A program made the position numbers and the translations under genes. Shown here in pieces: positions 24 through 25,349 of a stretch of DNA of 64,000 nucleotides. The number at the start of each line of letters is the position of its first letter. The stretch's first letter is position 1. This stretch comes from an uncultured delta proteobacterium (GTDB lineage: Bacteria; Myxococcota_A; Polyangia; Fen-1088), in NCBI GenBank assembly GCA_963782545.1, contig CAWAKD010000007.1:1104378-1168377 (forward strand), written 5' to 3'. The notes under the pieces were generated by a model. The model saw nothing but the letters and a program-made list of their open reading frames with translations, ran no database searches and was not told where the DNA came from.

Positions 24-2022
24 ATGCACGACAGTTTCAGAGGAACGTTCATTGGCTTGGCGGCGCTCCTCGCCTTTGGCGGTTGCAGCACCGGTGGCGT
101 GACGTACCAAGGACCCGACAACAACGACGCCGGGACGGACACGCCCACCGTCAAACAAGACGCTGCCCCCGACATCGTCGTGCGGGTGAACCTCGACGGC
201 CCCGGCTTGGCCGATTTGGGGCAGATTACCTGCACCGTTTCCGACGCCGGTTCCCATTGCGCGGTGCAGACCTGCGGCAATGGCATTCTGGAAGGCAGCG
301 AAGAGTGCGACGATGGCAATACCACGTCGGGCGAGGGTTGCACGTCGGACTGCAAGCTCGAGACCGATTGGGTGTGCCCCACGCCTGGTTCGCCCTGTAT
401 CTCGACCGTGGTCTGCGGCGATGGCCGGATCTCGGGCAACGAAATCTGCGACGACCACAATACCTCCGATGGCGACGGCTGCTCTGGCGACTGCAGCGCC
501 GTGGAACCGGGTTGGACCTGTCCGGCGCCCGGCGTGAGATGCCAACCCAAGTGCGGCGACGGTCTGATCACGGGCTGGGAGCAATGCGATGACGGCAACG
601 CCACTTCCGGTGACGGCTGCAGCGAATCGTGCACGACCGAGACTGGCTACGCCTGTCCGACGCCCGGTGAGGCCTGCCATCTAACCGTCTGCGGCGACGG
701 CAAGCAAGAGGGAGCCGAGTCGTGCGACGACGGCAACACCGTCCCCGGCGATGGCTGTACCATGGACTGCAAAGCCGAGCCGGAGTGCACAGGCAGCGAC
801 GGCTGCACCTCGCCGTGCGGCGATGGCCTGAAGCTGCCCGAGGAAGAGTGCGACGACGGCAACCGGACTTCGGGCGACGGCTGCTCGGCCGATTGCAAGC
901 TCGAAACCGGTTGGGATTGCAAGGACGTCGTGGACGCCACGACGTCGGTTCCCGTTCTCTTCCGCGACATGATCCCGTCGAACGCTACGATCACGGATTC
1001 CGCCGCCCCATCCCAACTTCGAGGTTCCCACGCCGTCCGGCAGGGTGGTCCCGAACATCGTCCTCGACACGCTCGGGGCCGATCGCGAGCCGCAGTACAA
1101 CCCGGATGTGGACACAACCGTCTCCATGACCACCAATGCCGATGACTTCAATTCCTGGTACCACGACTCGAACTACTCGAAGGTCGTGGTCGATAGCCTG
1201 CCGCTGGTCCAGCAGACCAACGGCACCGCCGTCACTTTCGTCTACGATCACTCTGGGACGTACAGCAGGGCTACCGGTACCTGGACGACCCCGCCCTTCT
1301 TCCCCCTCGACGATCGCGGCTGGGCCACGCCGCCGGACGGACCTGAGATCCCGTTCCTCGAGGCGAGCACGGATAATGCCCTGCATAACTTCTCCTTCAC
1401 CAGCGAAGTCCGCTACTGGTTCGAGTACCAGGGCGGCGAGAGCCTGTCCTTCATCGGCGACGACGATGTGTGGGTCTTCGTGAACGGCAGGCTGGCGGTG
1501 GACCTCGGTGGTGTGCACCAGGCAGCATCCGGCAGCATCACCCTCGATGCAACGGCCGCCACGACATTCAACCTCACCGTCGGCAACATCTACGAGATCG
1601 TCGTCTTTCAGGCCGAACGACGGGTGACCCAATCGAGCTACAAGTTGACCTTGGGCGTGTTCAACCGCACGCACACCGTGTGTAGCCCGAGGTGCGGCGA
1701 TGGCGTCGTCAACGGAACCGAGTCCTGCGACAACGGGCCCGACAACTCGGACACGGCCTACGGCGGTTGCACCACCCAGTGCACCTTCGGCCCCTACTGT
1801 GGCGATGGCAACGTCGATACGGCGGCCGGCGAGGAATGTGACGATGGGGCCAACCTCACCAGCTACGGCCACACCACCGGCTGCGGCCCTGGCTGCCGAA
1901 TACCCCACTACTGCGGCGACGGCAAGGTCGACAGCCTATTCGGCGAGAAATGCGACAACGGGGCCGAGAACGGCCAGAGCCTGAGCCTGTGCACCGCGAA
2001 TTGTCAGAGCATCGTCCCATGA
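24..2022 (+). CDS. Secreted/lipoprotein carrying 5 N-terminal plus 3 C-terminal Myxococcales Cys-rich repeats (TIGR02232 type) flanking a fibro-slime (PA14-like, TIGR02148 type) domain. Reading needs a +1 frame change near 990-1010.
   Basis: Track ORFs 24..1145 (signal peptide MHDSFRGTFIGLAALLAFGGC, then repeated CGDGx..EECDDGNxxSGDGCSxDC) and 1045..2022 (HNFSFTSEVRYWFEYQGGESLSFIGDDDVWVFVNGRLAVDLGG, the fibro-slime core, then more CGDG repeats) are consecutive parts of one protein in frames 0 and 1. The junction falls in a C-rich run, ccgcccca. Confidence 0.8.
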
Positions 2023-2708
2023 ACCGGGCCCGCATTACAGCACGACGCGTTGTGCTATCGTGCTGGATCTCCGTCCTGCTCGGCGCCTGCGGAGGCGGCG
2101 ACTCGGGCGGCGGCGTCGATGCAAACACCGTCGTATGCGGCACCCATGACGACCCCGGCGTGCTCCAGGTCATCGACATCTTGCCAGCCCTAGGATCGAC
2201 GGTAGTCAACCAGGGTATCGTGCATGGCTTCACGGTGGTCAATGCCCCGGCCATCTTCAGCAATTTCACGCTGCTTTATGGCTCCACGCACACCGCGGGT
2301 CTGTCGACCCCATCGGACCCGACGTTCCAGATCACGGAATCGGGCAGCAACCTCCTCTACCGACTCACGGTGGATTCATGGTCGCGCGCCCCTGGCCACG
2401 TCGAGCTTCGTGCCAGCGGCGGATACGATACCTCGAAGGGTTGTTCATGGGTGTTCCCCTCGCCGCTCTTTTCCTACGACGTGACCCCGGTGCCAGTCGG
2501 TGATGCCGGTGGAGAAGCCGGTGCCGCCGTGGACGGAGGACTCGGCCCCGCGGATGTCCCCCTCGACATCTCCCCCAGGCTCGACGTTTCCACCGGCGTG
2601 GACGGATCCGGGGCCATCGACGCTTCCAGCGAAATCGACGTGCCCATCGCACTCGACGGACCGGCCGCCGTCGACGGCGAGCCCCCCACCGAGGCAGGGG
2701 CAAACTAG
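2019..2708 (+). CDS. Hypothetical lipoprotein, translationally coupled to the upstream gene by an ATGA overlap.
   Basis: Internal Met of ORF 1950..2708 (MNRARITARRVVLSCWISVLLGACGGG gives a lipobox). Its start overlaps the upstream stop (ccATGAac). Gly/Asp-rich C-terminus. Confidence 0.6.
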   Translation: MNRARITARRVVLSCWISVLLGACGGGDSGGGVDANTVVCGTHDDPGVLQVIDILPALGSTVVNQGIVHGFTVVNAPAIFSNFTLLYGSTHTAGLSTPSDPTFQITESGSNLLYRLTVDSWSRAPGHVELRASGGYDTSKGCSWVFPSPLFSYDVTPVPVGDAGGEAGAAVDGGLGPADVPLDISPRLDVSTGVDGSGAIDASSEIDVPIALDGPAAVDGEPPTEAGAN

Positions 2709-3307: not shown

Positions 3308-4423
3308 TCAGTAAAAGCTCAGGTTGCCGATGCAGAAATCGAAACTGGTCGGTCCGAGATACGTGGTGAGATTGGTCGCGGGATCCGTGTAGTAGTCCTT
3401 GGCCTGCCAGTCCATGTTGAGCATGTGAGCACGATTGAACGGGATGGTCCTGCCCCATCCCTCCTGCGTCATGGACGAGAATGGAATGGTCACCACGACC
3501 GAGCCCGCCGACGTCGCGGTCGTGGCGCAGGCCCAGGACGAGTAGCCATTGAAGCAAGAAAAGCCTGCGGTAGTCGCGAAGGAAACGGGGGTCAGCCACG
3601 CGCCGTACACATCGTCGCAGTCGTTGGTCAAGGTACTCGACGACTCGCACGTGCCGCCCTTGGTGGTTGCGACCGAGGCGATGTCGGATGTCAGGATGGC
3701 AAAACGCACCCTACCTCCCGTGACCGTGCCCTGGATGGTGAAGGTGACGCCATTGTGGACGGAACCGTCGTAATTGCAGGAATTGCCGGATGTATCGGCG
3801 TCGAGCGACACCCCGAGCCCCGCGCCCCAGGTGGTGAAGCCGGAGCCGGACGTGCAAATCCACCCGGGCGTGGTCGCCAGCGCCGCTGCATCGGCTGGCT
3901 GCTGCGAGCCGGAACCGTCGTTGAAAGTAAACCAGCCGCCCGAACGACCATCCTGCGGGAGGATCGCGCCGTCCCCGTCGGCCATGTTGTCGATAAGCGG
4001 ATAGAGCCCGGTGGCCTTCGTCGGTACGCATGCCGTGGCACCGCCGGTGCTCGCCACGCCTCCGGTGCCTGGCACGCCTGCGATTCCGCCGCCTGCGGCG
4101 ACGACTCCGCCTGCGCCAGGGGCGGTCGTCGTCCCGACCATGCCACCCGTAGCCGCTCGGCCCCCAGTGCCGGGAAGAGCGATCCCGCCCTGCCCGGCCC
4201 CACCGGTTCCGACCACACCGCCCTTGCCGTTTACGGGTGGAAGATTGGCGGGCGTATAGCACCTGCTATCGACCGGTGAACAGACGTAGCCGTCTGGACA
4301 CCGCTTGCTCCCCGTGTAGCACTGCTGGGCCCCTTCCTCGGGATGCGGGCTGTAGGTGCACGCGTAGAGCGCCGAGCAGACGACGGCGCCAATCAACAAG
4401 CCGCCTTGAATGCTGGCTGGCAT
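3308..4423 (-). CDS. Secreted protein: signal peptide, Gly-rich linker, then a beta-rich C-terminal domain (possible carbohydrate-binding-like fold). Hypothetical.
   Basis: Starts at the internal Met of ORF 3308..4573 (MPASIQGGLLIGAVVCSALYA). The ATG overlaps the upstream stop as TGATG. Long G/T/A linker; C-terminal domain unrecognised. Confidence 0.6.
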   Translation of the reverse strand: MPASIQGGLLIGAVVCSALYACTYSPHPEEGAQQCYTGSKRCPDGYVCSPVDSRCYTPANLPPVNGKGGVVGTGGAGQGGIALPGTGGRAATGGMVGTTTAPGAGGVVAAGGGIAGVPGTGGVASTGGATACVPTKATGLYPLIDNMADGDGAILPQDGRSGGWFTFNDGSGSQQPADAAALATTPGWICTSGSGFTTWGAGLGVSLDADTSGNSCNYDGSVHNGVTFTIQGTVTGGRVRFAILTSDIASVATTKGGTCESSSTLTNDCDDVYGAWLTPVSFATTAGFSCFNGYSSWACATTATSAGSVVVTIPFSSMTQEGWGRTIPFNRAHMLNMDWQAKDYYTDPATNLTTYLGPTSFDFCIGNLSFY

Positions 4424-5604
4424 CAGAATCCCCCTTGTGCGCTGAGACCAGCCCCACCTGGAAAGACCGCGGGCACGAGCGCAACCTCTTGTGACCTGGC
4501 CGAGACTGCACCGATGCCATAGAGCGCGGCGCCGGTTGCGACAAGGCCCGCGCCCACACCGTACCCCACCCACTGGAGGGTCTCGTAGAGCTTGCCCCTA
4601 CTGTCGAAATTCGGATTGAAGATCTTCCCTGTTTCGACCGAGTGGGAATAAGCGCTCGCCTCGGCCCCGAAAAAGATGCCCGCCCCGATCGCACCCACAC
4701 CTACGGAACCGCAGACGATACCAGCCACGCGCAGGCCTCTACCGGGGCTGGTGGCCGCGGGCGTTGGTGTCGCCGTAGCCTGGACGATGCCGGGCTGGGT
4801 TTGCGGCGCGCCGGGAGCGGCACCCGATGGATATGGATAGGCTACGGCTGACCCGTAAGCTGGGGCAGGATAGGGGCCTGGAGCGGGGACGGCCGCTGAC
4901 GGTGGGTAGGCCGCCGGGCCAGTGGCAGGCGCAGGCGTAGCTGGCCAGGCTTCGGTGGGCGGAGCGTAGGGTGCCGGCCCTGTGGCTGGTGCCGGCGAAG
5001 CCATCGTGGCCGGTGAAGGCGCGGCAGCTGCAGCGGCCGGCGGCGAGGTCGTGGCCGGCGCCGCAACCGGAGCAGCCGCCGCGGACGGTGACGAATAGTC
5101 CGCCGGTGCGGCCGTGACCGGGGCCGTGCTTGGCGCGTACACCGGCGGGGGAACCCGTGCCGGCATCGTCGCGGGCGGAGCCGCCCCCGGAGAGGCCGCG
5201 CCCGAGGTCGTGGCGTTGCGGACAGGCGGCTTGACCTCGGGCCCAGCCGCCTCGATCTGCTTCTGCAGGGCCTCAATGCGTTCCTCGACTTCCGCGCGCT
5301 GCGGGCTCTTGGGTGCCTTGATCAGGTAGTTCTTGTACAGATCGAGCGCACGCTTGGCGTCCCCCTTGCGACGGTAGGATTGCGCCATGTTGTAGAGAAA
5401 GACGGGATCGTTGCGAAGGGCATAGGCCTTCTCGAACTCCCCGGCCGCATCATCCCAGCGCCCGACATCGAAGAGCTGCCTTCCTCTCTGAAAATGCTGT
5501 CTCGCCTCCTCCGTCGCCGAGTCGTCTCCCCGCGCAGTCCCCACGGGCAGTACCAGCGCCATCGCCAATCCCGCAACTAGAAATAGTGCCACCGTGGCTT
5601 TCAT
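4423..5604 (-). CDS. TPR-repeat protein with a long Pro/Ala-rich low-complexity region and a C-terminal Gly-zipper/TM segment.
   Basis: ORF 393 aa. Signal peptide MKATVALFLVAGLAMALVLPVG. TPR-like AYALRNDPVFLYNMAQSYRRKGDAKRALDLYKNYL. PA-rich spacer about 180 aa. C-terminal GxxxG-rich hydrophobic stretch. Confidence 0.65.
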   Translation of the reverse strand: MKATVALFLVAGLAMALVLPVGTARGDDSATEEARQHFQRGRQLFDVGRWDDAAGEFEKAYALRNDPVFLYNMAQSYRRKGDAKRALDLYKNYLIKAPKSPQRAEVEERIEALQKQIEAAGPEVKPPVRNATTSGAASPGAAPPATMPARVPPPVYAPSTAPVTAAPADYSSPSAAAAPVAAPATTSPPAAAAAAPSPATMASPAPATGPAPYAPPTEAWPATPAPATGPAAYPPSAAVPAPGPYPAPAYGSAVAYPYPSGAAPGAPQTQPGIVQATATPTPAATSPGRGLRVAGIVCGSVGVGAIGAGIFFGAEASAYSHSVETGKIFNPNFDSRGKLYETLQWVGYGVGAGLVATGAALYGIGAVSARSQEVALVPAVFPGGAGLSAQGGF

Positions 5605-18570: not shown

Positions 18571-18632
18571 GTTGTAGCACGCCGTATATCGCCGTCAACC
18601 ATAAAGGAATTGTGTCCTATATTATGGACACC
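18571..18632 (-). promoter_or_regulatory. Candidate metY promoter (TTGACG-N16-TACAAC, then an AGAGGA RBS) with an upstream palindrome GTGTCC-N8(tatattat)-GGACAC at 18613-18632.
   Basis: Sequence inspection of the metY 5' region; the AT-rich palindrome is conspicuous in a GC-rich genome. Confidence 0.3.
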
Positions 18633-18710
18633 AATACGGGGCGGTTCGTGAATTGCCCGGGTTTCCCGCGCGACGCCACGGCAACCCCGTATCGAATGAT
18701 GGACAACGTG

Positions 18711-19362
18711 CTAGCGCGCGTAAATGATCAGGTCGTGGTAGCGCCCCTCCGAGGTGCCCGGGTTCTCGTAAGCGTGGGCCTCGTCGGCGCGGAAGGAGAT
18801 CGAATCTCCCGGGGCCAGCGCGTAGACCTCGATGCCCACGCGCAGGTTGAGCGTGCCGCTCAGGACCACGACGATTTCGCGGGTTCCGGCGGCATGCGGA
18901 TCCGAGGCATGCGAGGCCCGCGCGGCCAGCCGCAACTCGTAGAGCTCCACCCAGGGATTCGAGCCGGCCGGTGACAGTGGGCGACTCTCCATCTTTCCGT
19001 CGGCCGAACGCAACACCTGGGCCTCGCTCCGGCGAAGCACGGACACCCCGTGTTCTTGCCCACCGATGAGATCGGAGAACGGGAATACCAAGGCCCACCG
19101 CGATCTTCCACAACACGCCGAGCGAAGGATTGCTCTTGTATAGCTCGATCTGCGACAAGGCGGCGCGACTGACCCCTGACGCCACGGCCAGCTCGTCGAG
19201 CGAGAGACCGCGCGCCTTGCGTTTTTCTCGCAGTTGCGTTCCGACTCGCTTGGCCAGGTCGGCGGCACCCACGTCGTCACCAGGCGGGAGCGGGGCCCTG
19301 CGCAAGCTCGCTGCCGGCGCCCGCTTACTTCTTGTCTGGACGGGTGTCTTTTCTTTCTTCAT
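18711..19362 (-). CDS. XRE-family HTH transcriptional regulator with a C-terminal cupin sensor domain. A 1-nt frame break lies between the HTH and the cupin.
   Basis: The HTH (LSLDELAVASGVSRAALSQIELYKSNPSLGVLWKIAVGLGIP) is in track ORF 18622..19362; the cupin (FSDLIGGQEHGVSVL...GDSISFRADEAHAYENPG) is in ORF 18711..19280. Junction at ggt att ccc g ttc. GAGGG RBS. Confidence 0.75.
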
Positions 19363-19614: not shown

Positions 19615-20949
19615 ATGCGGTTTGGTGTTGTACCGACTCTACGATGTTCGTCGCCACTTCATTCCTGGCCTGCGTTGCCAACACGCATTTCACCGAGACA
19701 TACCGCTGGGAGTGCGGGCGGCCAGCTCCAGCTTCGGGCGGCACCACCTCTTCCGGCGGTAACACATCCTCCGGCGGTTCCATCTCCTCGGGCGGTTCTT
19801 CGGCCTCGGGCGGCACAAATCCTCCGGGGGCGCCTTGGCCTCGGGCGGCATCACTCGTCCGGCGGTTCTTCGGCTCGGGCGGCACCGCCTCCTCGGGGGG
19901 CGCGTCAGCTTCGGGCGGCACCACATCCTCGGGTGGAGTGACCTGCTCGGGCGGTTCGGGGGGACCACCAGCCATCGTGACCGGCCCCTGCACCGACGTT
20001 CCCCGCCCGATCAATCCAACCATGCGCGGACTGGCTGGCTTGGGGCAACTGCGCAACCAGCTGGTTCGTGGACAACAACTACTGCAACAAGACGTGCGGC
20101 CGCTGCGGCGGCGGTGGCGTGACCGGTTCCGGCGGCGTGACCAGTTCCGGCGGTTCGTCGGCACGCGGCGGTTCGGGAGGGGCAGCGGGCTCGGGCGGGA
20201 GAACTTCCTCGGGCGGGGTGACCGGCTCGGGCGGTTCCGCCGGCAGTGGCGGTAGCACCAGCCCGGGAGGCACCAATCCACAGTTCACGGGCACGAATGG
20301 CTGGGCAAGCCGCTATTGGGACTGCTGCAAGCCTTCGTGTGGATGGACGGCCAATTCCAATCCTCCAGTTCCGAGCTGCGCCAAGGACGGGACGGGCCGA
20401 GTCGGCGTAGACAGCAAGAACGGCTGCGAGGGCGGGGGGTCGGCCTTCGAATGCTACGACTTTTCGCCCTGGTACGATGCGAGCACCAATATGTCGTACG
20501 GTTTCGCGGCCTACAATGGGGTCGCCTGCGGCACCTGTTTCATGCTGCAATTCACGGGCAGCAGCAACTCCGGCCCCAACGACGGCGCCGCCGCGATCAA
20601 AGGCCAGCAGATGGTCGTGCAAGTCATCAATATCGGCGGCATCCAGGCCAACCAGTTCGACCTCCTGATCCCAGGTGGCGGCGTAGGCGCCATGAATGGT
20701 TGCGCGACCCAGTGGGGGTCGTCGACCGACCTCGGCGTGCAGTACGGCGGCCTGCTTTCGGAATGCGGCGGCGACCCTGCCTGCATGAAGGGCAAGTGCT
20801 CCTCGGTTTTCGGCAATGTTTCGTCGGTGTTCAAGGCCGGCTGCGACTGGTTCACGGGTTGGTTCAGCTCGGCCGACAATCCCAATCTGGTCTACAAGCA
20901 GGTATCGTGCCCCTCGCAGCTCACCTCGAAGACCGGCCTCTCGAAGTAG
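19615..20949 (+). CDS. Glycoside hydrolase family 45 endoglucanase with an N-terminal signal, Gly/Ser/Thr linkers and a small Cys/Trp-rich CBM10-like module. Several frame disruptions in the linker-coding repeats.
   Basis: The catalytic domain in ORF 20068..20949 matches GH45 hallmarks (SRYWDCCKPSCGW; QMVVQVINIGG..QFDLLIPGGGVG; ADNPNLVYKQVSCP), including both catalytic Asp contexts. CADWLAWGNCATSWFVDNNYCNKTCGRCG resembles CBM10. A strong AGGAG RBS precedes the ATG at 19615. Confidence 0.75.
19730..19985 (+). repeat. Degenerate tandem DNA repeats (ggcggYwcYtcYtcSggc units) encoding SGG(T/S)(T/S)SSGG linkers.
   Basis: Visible periodicity. The correct linker reading switches frame three times within about 50 nt (around 19830, 19855 and 19876). 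Confidence 0.6.
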
Positions 20950-21138
20950 CCAAGAGAGGTGCGACGGCGCGTGCCGGCGGAGTCAGAGCCGGCATCCATG
21001 CCTTCGCCGTGAGCAGGCGCACACGATGGTCTTCGCTCGCACAAGCCGGTGGGGGTAACTTTCCACGGGATTCGTCGAAATCCCCGGCTGTTTCAGCGAA
21101 TTCAGGCCACAGCCGCTGCCACAATCGGGTAGAGTTTA

Positions 21139-21158
21139 GTTCATAGAGGTTCATAGAG
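21139..21158 (+). promoter_or_regulatory. Perfect tandem direct repeat GTTCATAGAG x2, 7 nt upstream of the ATG of the downstream fibro-slime gene.
   Basis: Seen directly. The 10-bp period resembles OmpR/PhoB-type response-regulator direct-repeat sites; the core TCATA resembles a Pho box half-site. Confidence 0.3.
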
Positions 21159-21165
21159 ATTCTCC

Positions 21166-23149
21166 ATGCGGTCCTTTCCACCTTTGCTGCTCGTCGCGGT
21201 TTCGGGTTCCCTATTCATGGTCGCGTGTGTGTCGGCCAACATCATTCAGACGGGCCCCACGGGTGGAGGGGGCGATGAGGCCGATGCAAACACCATCCAT
21301 CTCGATGCGCCATCGACAACTTTCAAGCTCGATGGGAGCACTTTGTCGCGCGCCGGATCTGACGCTCCTCCCGGACCGAATTGCGGCAACGGCGAGCGGA
21401 CCAGCGACGAGGCCTGCGACGACGGCAATACGGTATCGGGCGACGGCTGCGCCAACAACTGCCTCAGCGTCGAGCCGGGTTTTTCGTGCGTCCCCCCAGG
21501 AAAGCCCTGCCGCCCGGTGGCTCGCTGCGGTGATGGCTTGGTGGTGTTCCCCGAACAGTGTGACGACGGCAACCTTGCAGCCGGCGACGGCTGTTCGGCC
21601 GGCTGCAAGGTCGAGATCGGCTGGAAGTGCGATGGCAACCCCAGCACCTGCTCGCACACCACATGCGGCGACCACACGATCGAAGGCGCCGAGGGCTGCG
21701 ACGACGGCAACAGCATGCCCTTCGACGGCTGCTCGGCCGATTGCCAAAACGAGCCCTCCTGCAAAGGCAGCGGCGCCTGCACCTCGCGATGTGGTGACGG
21801 CATCGTGCTAAACGAGGAATGCGACGACGGCAACAACACCGACGGCGACGGTTGCTCGCACGACTGCAAGATCGAGTCTGGTTTCAAGTGTTCGCAACCC
21901 GATATCGGCGACAAGATGATGGTGCCGGCCGTGTACCGCGACTTCAACTACCACAACCCGACCGACTTCGAGGCCGGGGTCACCGGTTCGAAGACCCCCA
22001 CCACGGGCCTGGTCAAGAGCGACCTCGATGCCAACGGCAAGCCGGTGTACACCGGGGTCACCGGCAACGCTGTTCACATCGAAAGCGCAGCCTCGCTCGC
22101 CAAGTGGTACACCAACGTCGACGGAGTGAACCACGCGACCACGGGCAAGCTGACCCTGTGGGACAACGGCAAGGGCGGCTACGTGAATCGGTACAAGGAG
22201 GACGGAACCCAATACTTCAACACCGAGCCGGCCTACTACTGCGGAAACGTCGGTTCGGAGAAGACCGACGCCAACGGAGACCCGATCCCGTGCACCTCCA
22301 TGTACGCGACGGCCACCAATTGCGACGAAATGGCCGCCAAGGGCGAGGAGATGCTGCCGGGGAGCTGCATCTCCACCAACGGTTCGTACAGCGCCAAGTT
22401 CATCGTTTCGAAGATGGATGGCAACCCTTGCTTCTTCCCCGTCGACAACGACAACTTCTCGAAGGACAGGAATTACGCCGCAGATTCCTCCCTACTACGA
22501 CGCCTCGAAGTCGTGGCCGAAACAGGTCGACGACGCCGGGAACGTGATCATGCACAACTTCAGCTTCACCAGCGAGGTGCGCTACTGGTTCAAGTTCGAC
22601 AAGAGCAAGACCTACACCCTCGACTTTACCGGCGACGACGATGTCTGGGTGTTCATCAACGGCAAGCTCGCAGTCGACCTGGGCGGCATCCACTCGCCGG
22701 TCAGCGGCAGCATCGTGATCGGCTCGAACGGCAACGGTACCACCACGGTGACCTCGTACGATGACCAGGGCGTCGCCACCACCCCGACCACGTCGACCGC
22801 CGACCTCGGCTTGCAGGACGGCAAGGTTTACGAGGCCGCCGTCTTTCAAGCCGAGCGCCAGACCACCGGCTCGTCCTACAAGTTGACACTGAGCGGCTTC
22901 AATGCCGCACCCAGCGACTGCCACCCCGATTGCGGCGACGGCGTTCTGGAGATCGGCGAAGAGTGCGACGATGGTCCGGACAATGGCAAGGGTGGCTACG
23001 GCAGCTGTGGTGCAGACTGCACCTTGCAGGCCGGCTTCTGCGGCGACAACGTGGTCCAGGAGGGCGAGGACTGCGACGAAGGCGCCCTGAACGGCACCGG
23101 CGCCGACCACTGCCCGTCCGGTTGCCACTACCTCATCCCGATTCTCTGA
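21166..23149 (+). CDS. Second Cys-rich-repeat + fibro-slime domain secreted protein, a paralog of the gene at 24..2022. A +1 frame change falls inside the fibro-slime domain near 22470-22495.
   Basis: ORF 21166..22764 (signal MRSFPPLLLVAVSGSLFMVACVSA, four CGDG..CDDGN repeats, start of fibro-slime YRDFNYHNPTDFEAG) continues in ORF 22418..23149 (HNFSFTSEVRYWFKFD..GDDDVWVFINGKLAVDLGG, then C-terminal repeats). Confidence 0.8.
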
Positions 23150-23207: not shown

Positions 23208-24473
23208 ATGCTCGACATTCGACTCGTCCGTGAAAAACCCGATGAGGTCCGCGCAGGGCTGCGCAAGCTGGCCGCGGACGTGGACCTCGACGCCCTGCAT
23301 CGCCCTCGACGAGGGCGTGCGCAAGCTCAAGAACGATTCCCAGGCCATCCAGGCCGACCAGAATCGCCTGTCCAAGGAAATCGCCAAGGCGCCCAGCCCC
23401 GAAGCGCGTGCGGAGATCAAGGCCAAGGGCGCCGCACTCAAGGAAAGGAACGAGCAGCTGCTCAAGGATCTGGCCGCGCAGGAGGCCGCTCTCGACGAGA
23501 AGTTGCTGGAGTTGCCCAACCTGCCCCACCCGTCGGTGCCCGTGGGCAAGGATGAAAGCGAAAACCGCATCGTGCGCGAGGAAGGCGCGAAGCGCGCCTT
23601 CGCCTTCACCCCGAGGCCCACTGGGATCTGGGTCCGCGCTGGGGCATCATCGACTTCGACCGCGGGGTCAAGATCTCGGGCAGCCGCTTCTACGTGCTCA
23701 AGGATTGGGGCGCCCGCCTGCAACGCGCGCTGATCTCGTTCATGCTCGACCTGCACACCCGCAAGCACGGCTACACCGAGGTCCTGCCGCCCTACATGGT
23801 TCGACGCGAGTGCCTGGTGGGCACGGGCAATCTGCCCAAGTTCGGCGACAATCTGTACCACGACGCCAGCGAGGATTTCTGGTTCATCCCCACCGCCGAG
23901 GTGCCCGTCACCAACCTCTACCGCGATGAGGTTCTCGACGGCGCACGGCTCCCCATCAAGCACGTGGCCTTCACCGCGTGCTTCCGCCGCGAGCAGATGG
24001 CCGCCGGCCGCGACACCCGCGGCATCAAGCGCGGCCACCAGTTCGACAAGGTCGAGCTGGTCAAATTCGTCAGGCCGGAAAACTCCATGGACGAGCTCGC
24101 TGGGCTGCTCTCCGACGCGGAGGATGTCCTCAAAGCGCTGGAGCTCCCCTACCGCGTGGTCGAGATGTGCACCGGCGACCTTTCCTTTTCGGCTATGGTC
24201 AAGTTCGACCTCGAGTTGTGGGCGCCCGGCTGCGGCGAATGGCTCGAAGTCAGCTCGTGCTCGAACTTCGGCGACTTCCAGGCTCGTCGCGCGAAGATCC
24301 GTTTCAAGGATGGCAAGGAGAAGAACCGTTTCGTCCACACCCTCAACGGCTCCGCTTTGGCCTTGCCAAGAACCCTGATTGGTGTTCTCGAAACCTACCA
24401 GCGGGCGGATGGAAAGCTAGACGTCCCCCTGGCGCTTCGACCATACTTCGATGGTATCGACGTGCTCGGGTAG
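23208..24473 (+). CDS. serS: Seryl-tRNA synthetase. The reading frame is broken twice (about 23300 and 23618) and restored.
   Basis: N-terminus MLDIRLVREKPDEVRAGLRKLAADVDLDAL (frame 0); coiled-coil arm IALDEGVRKLKND...AFAFTPRP (frame 1, track ORF 22930..23733); catalytic core HWDLGPRWGIIDFDRGVKISGSRFYVLKDWGARL...FRREQ... (frame 0, ORF 23694..24473). Confidence 0.85.
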
Positions 24474-24479
24474 TCCAAC

Positions 24480-25349
24480 GTGGAAGGCAAGCCGCTCGCA
24501 CTGGCCGTTTTCTTCTCTGGCGTCTTCGCCATCGCCATGGGTGTGCTGATCCTCCATGCCGCCAGCGCGCCGCCACCCACGCCCAAGCGCCCGGAACCCC
24601 CGCCGCCCCCCTCGGCGATGATCAACTCGGACATGCGCTTTTCGGTCGTCTACTACAAGGCGCTCATCGAGCAGGATGCCAAGTCCTACGGCATTGCGCC
24701 GCCCTCCTACGAGGATCTCTTGCAACCCAACCCCTACTTCGATGAACTGCGCGAACGGCAGCACCTGCACGTCAAGTCGCCCATCGAAACCCGTCATCTG
24801 CGCATCACCCTGGAGGTACTCAAGGAGACCACGATCATCGAGTCCCATTCCCTGTCTACCGACCACCTGGTGTTACGCATCGAAAATCGCACGCCGCTCT
24901 TCCTCGCCTACCGCGTCCGCACGACGGTTCCCGACAAGCAGAAGTGCGCGATGAAGGCCGAGCTGGCGCACAACGCCATCGCCCTCGAACCCGAGCAGAC
25001 CATCCTGCGCACCGAGTGCCTGTTTCGAAAGGATGCGCGCATCGACGTCACCAGCATCGAGGTCATCGAATTGCCCGCTCTTTCCGCCTACTACGTGTCT
25101 CGCGTGCCACCCAACAGCACCTTCTACGATCCGAGAACTTCGGCTGGCCACACGCCCCCACGAGGAGTCATGTGCCCGCAGACCTTCTCCTGGCGAGACA
25201 TCAGGGAAGGCATCGAAAAGAAGCAACTGGGCTGGCGCGACGTGATGGACTTCTATGCGCGTCACAACTGCAGTGAATACTCATTTTTCAAGTCCTATCG
25301 TTACCGCAGGGATCCATCGGAACCCCTGCCCGCCCGTTCACTCGACTAA
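24480..25349 (+). CDS. Hypothetical protein with a single N-terminal TM anchor.
   Basis: ORF with a GTG start; hydrophobic LALAVFFSGVFAIAMGVLIL followed by a Pro-rich stretch. No recognisable domain. Confidence 0.5.
   Translation: MEGKPLALAVFFSGVFAIAMGVLILHAASAPPPTPKRPEPPPPPSAMINSDMRFSVVYYKALIEQDAKSYGIAPPSYEDLLQPNPYFDELRERQHLHVKSPIETRHLRITLEVLKETTIIESHSLSTDHLVLRIENRTPLFLAYRVRTTVPDKQKCAMKAELAHNAIALEPEQTILRTECLFRKDARIDVTSIEVIELPALSAYYVSRVPPNSTFYDPRTSAGHTPPRGVMCPQTFSWRDIREGIEKKQLGWRDVMDFYARHNCSEYSFFKSYRYRRDPSEPLPARSLD

Follow-up and report, generated by a model that had tools for sequence, protein, structure and literature searches.

The window analysed here is a 64,000-nucleotide stretch of DNA (G+C 62–69%) from an uncultured delta proteobacterium of the Polyangia. 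Directly downstream of a gene for a glycoside hydrolase family 45 (GH45) cellulase, it carries a fibro-slime gene, gene B, whose product is an ordinary member of a large, known family of myxobacterial Cys-rich surface lipoproteins with a fibro-slime/PA14 domain. Our preferred interpretation, to which we assign a probability of roughly 0.55, is that the product of gene B is exported, carries a lipid anchor, and resembles an adhesin, and that the gene adjoins the GH45 gene but is transcribed separately from it. The window holds a second gene of this kind, gene A, and the two were originally predicted to encode carbohydrate- or cell-surface-binding proteins that work with the cellulase.

As the sequence stands, gene B consists of two open reading frames (ORFs) in different frames, 21166..22764 followed by 22418..23149. 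Alignment of the DNA with three orthologous loci (L009, L012, and L004) traces the break to a single extra G at position 22480 (ACGCC[G]CAGATT), which is absent from all three, and reveals no other frame-breaking difference over the full length of the gene. Gene A is likewise divided, into 24..1145 and 1045..2022, with a shift of frame between positions ~975 and 1010. The original prediction treated each gene as a single ORF, which is incorrect, but its coordinates for the two genes (24-2022 and 21166-23149) and its description of their layout both hold. Orthologues of gene B are abundant, full-length, and intact, with lengths of 640–670 aa and identities of 60–86%, and homologues give >6,800 matches at E ≤ 1e-10, which marks a very large family. 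Gene A is a diverged paralogue of gene B, as had been proposed: the proteins are ~46% identical by BLASTP, and the fibro-slime/PA14 domain is flanked by 5 + 3 Cys-rich repeats in A and by 4 + 2 in B.

Domain scoring of the frame-corrected proteins at curated cut-offs recovered the expected order of a signal peptide, Cys-rich repeats, a fibro-slime/PA14 domain, and further repeats, with the hidden Markov models (HMMs) TIGR02232, TIGR02148, and PA14 all passing. The repeats are recognized as TIGR02232 (224.5 bits in A and 175.5 bits in B) and as PF13948 (DUF4215; 148.8 and 112.6 bits, respectively), with HMM matches to 5–6 stretches of A and 4–5 stretches of B. The fibro-slime domain scores 89.3 bits in A and 72.5 bits in B with TIGR02148 (cut-off 45), while PA14 (PF07691) matches B with 38.4 bits and A, at the borderline, with 24.6 bits (gathering score 24). 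Both products are predicted to be lipoproteins from their lipobox patterns, which in A reads …AFGG-C21. Among 57 full-length orthologues of gene B, Cys21 is invariant within the consensus LLxxAC, as are the Cys framework and the motifs HNFxFTxEVxYWF, GDDDVWVF, and FQAER.

The core of the fibro-slime domain is predicted to adopt a PA14-type β-sandwich fold. Among solved folds, the closest are those of PA14 domains with which adhesins bind sugar, and Foldseek gave weak matches to members of the same families and to other lectins. The PA14 domains compared were those of an RTX adhesin (6m8m), MpIBP (6x95), Cea1 (5a3l), Flo5, Epa1, and the C. thermocellum polysaccharide sensor RsgI3 (6qe7). The fibro-slime domain shares only 9–19% sequence identity with these domains. 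It has roughly double their length, including an additional N-terminal half and an insertion that contains Cys. The GDDDVWVF motif is placed where, we presume, PA14 lectins hold their Ca2+-binding Asp-Asp pair, and by analogy the domain of gene B is a putative lectin that probably binds glycan in a Ca2+-dependent manner. To our knowledge, binding by fibro-slime domains has never been structurally defined, and the TIGR02232/DUF4215 repeat has no known function. This repeat also occurs in Myxococcus TIGR02232/DUF4215 proteins and in a diatom adhesive-trail protein (bioRxiv 10.1101/2023.03.06.531300); in gene B it forms only the scaffold that flanks the fibro-slime domain. One Cys repeat of gene B aligns to residues 881–918 of human pappalysin-2 (8sl1, E 2.4e-7), the sole PDB sequence match, which provides a solved structural template for DUF4215.

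Together, the domains, the lipobox, and the PA14-like fold make a lipid-anchored, exported, probably glycan-binding protein the best-supported mechanism. In such a protein, the disulfide-rich repeats would serve as a stiff stalk, keeping the PA14-like domain clear of the outer membrane, and this domain, the core of the ~330-aa fibro-slime domain, would bind polysaccharide through a Ca2+/Asp-Asp site, as do the PA14 domains of Flo, Epa, and RTX adhesins. More tentatively, the putative ligand could be a β-glucan or a cellulose surface, and the protein might then keep both the cell and the lipid-anchored GH45 on the substrate, as has been proposed for Fibrobacter.

The spacer between the two genes bears on whether they are transcribed together. 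As originally noted, gene B starts 216 nt past the GH45 stop, with the GH45 ORF ending at 20949 and the ATG of gene B at 21166. In a comparison of the spacers of 20 orthologous loci, which range from 68 to 274 nt, only the last ~40 nt could be aligned, with the pattern ATCGG-TAnAnT-N15-17-GGAGG-N6-7-ATG, which we infer to be a −10 box, a short leader, and a Shine-Dalgarno (SD) sequence with promoter function. The same ~45-nt block precedes a homologue with 74% identity that lies in an unrelated context, between ABC-F and ETF-QO genes (L008, 9880-10003), and this homologue seems to have been moved or duplicated as a self-contained unit. Because the block travels with the gene to L008, gene B appears to be an autonomous unit, which suggests that it is its own transcription unit rather than the downstream member of an operon with GH45. 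A search of the window for ATCGG-TAGATT as a regulon signature found no second significant copy.

Linkage of the fibro-slime gene to a cellulase gene, on which the original prediction depended, is conserved in related genomes. In genome and metagenome collections, a GH45 gene lies directly upstream of the gene B orthologue, on the same strand, in ~23 loci (L001–L006, L009–L015, L017, L019, L025, L089–L091, and the P0020 and P0022 loci). This count covers syntenic loci with enough sequence, in which identity of the fibro-slime protein falls to ~64% and L024 is the sole exception. However, the pair sits in a collinear block of radical-SAM, metY, HTH/cupin, GH45, fibro-slime, and serS genes, followed by genes for a 289-aa protein, HU, and a PPDK-like protein, and conserved adjacency alone is little informative because this whole neighbourhood, housekeeping genes included, is collinear. 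Fibro-slime genes also neighbour GH45 genes in two separate further clades of the GH45 tree. In one (L050, 10771-16977; L057, 10762-14457), genes for a GH45 lipoprotein, a Ser/Thr protein kinase, and a ~800-aa fibro-slime protein stand in this conserved order. The fibro-slime protein belongs to a different subtype, whose domain carries a Cys-rich insertion (CVPNASG…), and L050 has in addition a fibro-slime gene like gene B directly after GH45. In the other (L048, L052, and L064), a convergent fibro-slime gene lies ~1.6 kb past GH45. Around 68 non-syntenic GH45 genes, the density of fibro-slime domains, calculated from small counts, was 1.23 per 100 kb at a distance of 0–3.5 kb (5 in 408 kb), 1.22 per 100 kb at 3.5–7 kb (4 in 327 kb), and 0.40 per 100 kb at 7–10.5 kb (1 in 252 kb). 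The 10 genes in 987 kb compare with none beyond four syntenic orthologues in a 715-kb metagenomic control centred on serS, which includes other taxa and leaves the comparison confounded by taxonomy. The enrichment of fibro-slime genes near GH45 is weak.

An alternative explanation is that the adjacency is inherited gene order without any coupling, with gene B being one of many paralogous surface proteins that serve in the matrix, in cell-cell contact, against prey, or in generic adhesion. We regard this as a substantial possibility, although short of even odds. The observations that favour it also weigh against our interpretation. Linkage in the main clade is inseparable from general synteny, since the block from the radical-SAM gene to the PPDK-like gene is collinear in the same loci. 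The syntenic locus L024 retains GH45 but has serS directly next to it and no fibro-slime gene. Homologues at L008 (74% identity), L007 (61%), and P0059 (55%) lie in unrelated contexts without carbohydrate-active enzyme (CAZyme) genes, as do paralogues from this very large gene family. Near non-syntenic GH45 genes, the fibro-slime density at 0–3.5 kb equals that at 3.5–7 kb, and gene B has a predicted promoter of its own. In contrast, L017 keeps the GH45–fibro-slime pair although serS is no longer downstream, and in L093, the nearest outgroup, the serS-HU-PPDK block is present but both GH45 and the fibro-slime gene are missing. Also against inherited order are the fibro-slime neighbours in the two further GH45 clades and in Fibrobacter, and the lack of extra fibro-slime genes in the serS control, taxonomically imperfect as that control is. 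Further points against our interpretation concern the protein and its expression: a PDB sequence search with the fibro-slime domain found no related solved structure, Foldseek support for the PA14 fold is weak (E ~1e-3), lipoprotein status and promoter function are both read from sequence patterns, and the SD in this window is degenerate and duplicated. Of the original claim that gene B works with the cellulase, the conserved linkage stands, in ~23 loci, two further GH45 clades, and Fibrobacter. Cooperation itself, given L024, the CAZyme-free homologues, and the gene's own predicted promoter, goes no further than a reasonable hypothesis, and teamwork between GH45 and the gene B product is plausible.

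It is unlikely that GH45 and the fibro-slime gene form one co-transcribed operon. The genes share a strand, their adjacency is conserved, and the shortest spacer is 68 nt by the gene calls at L006. However, a −10-like box and an SD stand directly before the fibro-slime ATG in all of the spacers and are kept at L008, the spacers vary in length and are otherwise unalignable, and GC-rich stem-loops often follow the GH45 stop in orthologous loci. An operon would have no promoter between its genes, and here one is predicted. GH45 and gene B would instead be neighbouring but separately transcribed units, consistent with our interpretation.

The original prediction also drew attention to a hairpin and a tandem repeat ahead of gene B (Table 1). 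Both are present, but neither is conserved and neither supports a link to the cellulase. The GCCGGC-N9-GCCGGC sequence occurs once in the window; its stability is at chance level when compared with shuffled sequences (intergenic fold z −1.07, best-hairpin z −1.3), a T tract is lacking, and orthologues do not keep the sequence, for which reasons it was rejected as a terminator or regulatory element. The 10-bp repeat is private to the window, being absent from all 20 orthologous spacers, including that of the closest locus, L009, and was rejected as a regulatory repeat because it is a window-specific copy of the SD region. A search of the spacer for structured RNA gave no Rfam match at E ≤ 1.

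The frame break in gene B is one of several in the window. Single-base indels cluster at 19080, 19640-20060, 22480, 23297, 23613, and ~1000, in the regulator, GH45, gene B, serS, and gene A. Compared with orthologous loci, serS, the seryl-tRNA synthetase gene beside gene B, has an extra G at 23297 and lacks a C at 23613, leaving it readable only over three frames. An extra C at 19080 breaks the frame of the HTH-cupin regulator gene, and frameshifts upstream of 20068 remove the signal peptide, a linker, and an ShK-like domain from GH45. No frame is broken in Lon, ClpB, metY, or the PPDK-like gene. The contexts of three indels resemble one another, on the pattern C-Y-^-C-A (CC[G]CAG, CT[G]CAT, and CT[C]AGG), which might reflect a systematic base-calling error. 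Sequence past each indel is still 85–96% identical to orthologues, and the closest relatives are long-read metagenome-assembled genomes (MAGs) of uncultured Polyangia/"Myxococcales" from soils, fens, and peat. Because the essential serS is broken twice and adjoins genes that are otherwise undecayed, we consider it highly probable that the frame breaks are assembly errors and not real pseudogenes, and gene B is probably intact in the organism. A programmed frameshift in gene B was rejected, as none of the orthologues compared has the extra G. Genuine inactivation of genes A and B by frameshift is very improbable: although both span two frames in the sequence as given, the sole lesion in gene B is a 1-nt insertion, the new frame contains no stop, the downstream part of the gene is still 85–90% identical to orthologues, similar indels are found twice in the essential serS and further ones in the regulator and GH45 genes, in the pattern of assembly error, and the closest relatives are long-read MAGs.

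Table 1. Features in the window and their coordinates.
Feature	Position	Strand	Basis or remark
Gene A, paralogue of gene B with like layout	24..2022	+	ORFs, domain HMMs, BLASTP
Gene A, lipobox Cys	84	+	
Gene A, five repeats	273-896	+	
Gene A, fibro-slime domain	948-1662	+	
Gene A, three repeats	1681-2013	+	
Regulator gene (HTH_3 + Cupin_2), divergent	18622..19362	-	Pfam of orthologues, synteny; +C at 19080
GH45 endoglucanase gene, catalytic domain ~20299-20937	19615..20949	+	PF02015 139.9 bits, E 1.4e-40; N-terminal third frameshifted
8-bp GC-rich hairpin, 22 nt past GH45 stop	20971..20995	+	GCCGGC-N9-GCCGGC core 20973-20993; at best a weak terminator candidate
Putative promoter-proximal block	21124..21165	+	Conservation; ATCGGG-TAGAGT (-10-like, 21130-21135), weakened SD AGAGG 21145-21149 and AGAGA 21155-21159
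10-bp tandem duplication of SD region, GTTCATAGAG x2.4	21139..21162	+	TRF score 41
Gene B, predicted fibro-slime/PA14 lipoprotein, 660 aa after removal of the extra G	21166..23149	+	Reading frames, orthologue alignment, domain HMMs
Gene B, signal peptide with lipobox (…LFMVA-C21)	21166..21228	+	Pattern read from sequence
Gene B, four N-terminal Cys-rich acidic repeats (DUF4215/TIGR02232, CGDG…CDDGN…GDGCS..C)	21382..21867	+	HMM matches
Gene B, fibro-slime domain with predicted PA14-like β-sandwich core	21922..22900	+	Contains GDDDVWVF (22631-22654) and the extra G at 22480
Gene B, two degenerate C-terminal Cys repeats	22919..23134	+	Sequence and BLASTP self-similarity to N-terminal repeats

The GH45 motifs YWDCCKP and QFDLLIPGGG, which presumably hold the two catalytic Asp residues (base and acid), are invariant among 22 homologues. 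Orthologues of the enzyme are lipoproteins whose ORFs begin MRFGAVPT…GFLAC, and they have long Gly/Ser/Thr linkers and an internal ShK-like Cys domain. Since GH45 and the fibro-slime protein both have lipoprotein signals, tethering at the cell surface is predicted for both products. In the window, the ShK-toxin-like domain (C..PC.DW..WG.C…NYCN.TCGRC) lies at ~19990-20110 on the + strand, between two GH45 linkers, and is kept in all orthologues; the homologue P0128 matches PF01549 as well as PF02015. The linkers, rich in GGT/S, are encoded by tandem repeats of 18 nt (also 35 and 70 nt) at 19734-19933 and 20112-20153, and these repeats are likely a hot spot for assembly indels. The HTH_3/Cupin_2 gene is found beside GH45 in all syntenic loci, and its product is a candidate local regulator. 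On the other side of gene B, 24480-25349 (+ strand) encodes a conserved protein of 289 aa that matches no Pfam family. It lies between serS and HU, a position that it holds in every relative, including the outgroup L093.

The original prediction described the fibro-slime genes as bracketing the region. This arrangement has no functional content, because the 19 kb separating genes A and B codes for Lon, ClpB, an S41 peptidase, Maf, a radical-SAM protein, and metY, and with these housekeeping genes between A and B the stretch was also rejected as an island. Beside gene A are two lipoprotein-like ORFs, 1950-2708 (+ strand) and 3308-4573 (− strand), with lipobox-like N termini and no Pfam match. 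In the second of these, there is also a Gly-rich linker, together with a C-terminal domain that contains Cys and might serve as a binding module.

The leading candidates for what attaches Fibrobacter to cellulose, without classical carbohydrate-binding modules (CBMs), are its fibro-slime proteins. F. succinogenes S85 has 10 fibro-slime genes and 4 GH45 genes, and its GH45 gene Fisuc_1473 is immediately upstream of the fibro-slime genes Fisuc_1474/1475 (PMC3079729), as the GH45 gene of the window is upstream of gene B. The Fibrobacter fibro-slime proteins are cellulose-induced and are extracellular or located in the outer membrane, and an antibody to them cut adhesion to cellulose by 62%; their proposed role is to keep the cell on cellulose beside endoglucanases (PMC4668043). 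The product of gene B resembles Fisuc_1474/1475 and the 180-kDa cellulose-binding protein of Fibrobacter in having TIGR02148 and in its predicted export, with relatedness meaning a shared HMM. It differs from them in belonging to another phylum and in having flanking DUF4215 Cys repeats and a lipobox. Adhesion to cellulose has been shown for Fibrobacter, by antibody inhibition, whereas the myxobacterial proteins are known from sequence alone, and no functional study of a myxobacterial fibro-slime member was found in the searchable literature.

As it stands, the locus is a matter of routine annotation, with the practical lesson that frameshift errors in the window cause an ORF-level reading to miscall genes. 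A broader proposal is that a lipid-anchored GH45 and a fibro-slime/PA14 lectin form a recurrent "attach-and-cut" module for CBM-less attack on cellulose, used both by soil Polyangia and by rumen Fibrobacter. This proposal is speculative, and we consider it rather doubtful. Predicted surface tethering of both products is compatible with it, and the module could have come to be shared through descent or transfer of a cassette or through convergence. If the proposal is true, the fibro-slime domain would be an unrecognised family of cellulose-binding modules. If the pairing of GH45 with fibro-slime genes is functional, the intact orthologues from soil myxobacteria would add to the Fibrobacter proteins a second set, easy to express, on which cellulose binding by this domain could be tested.

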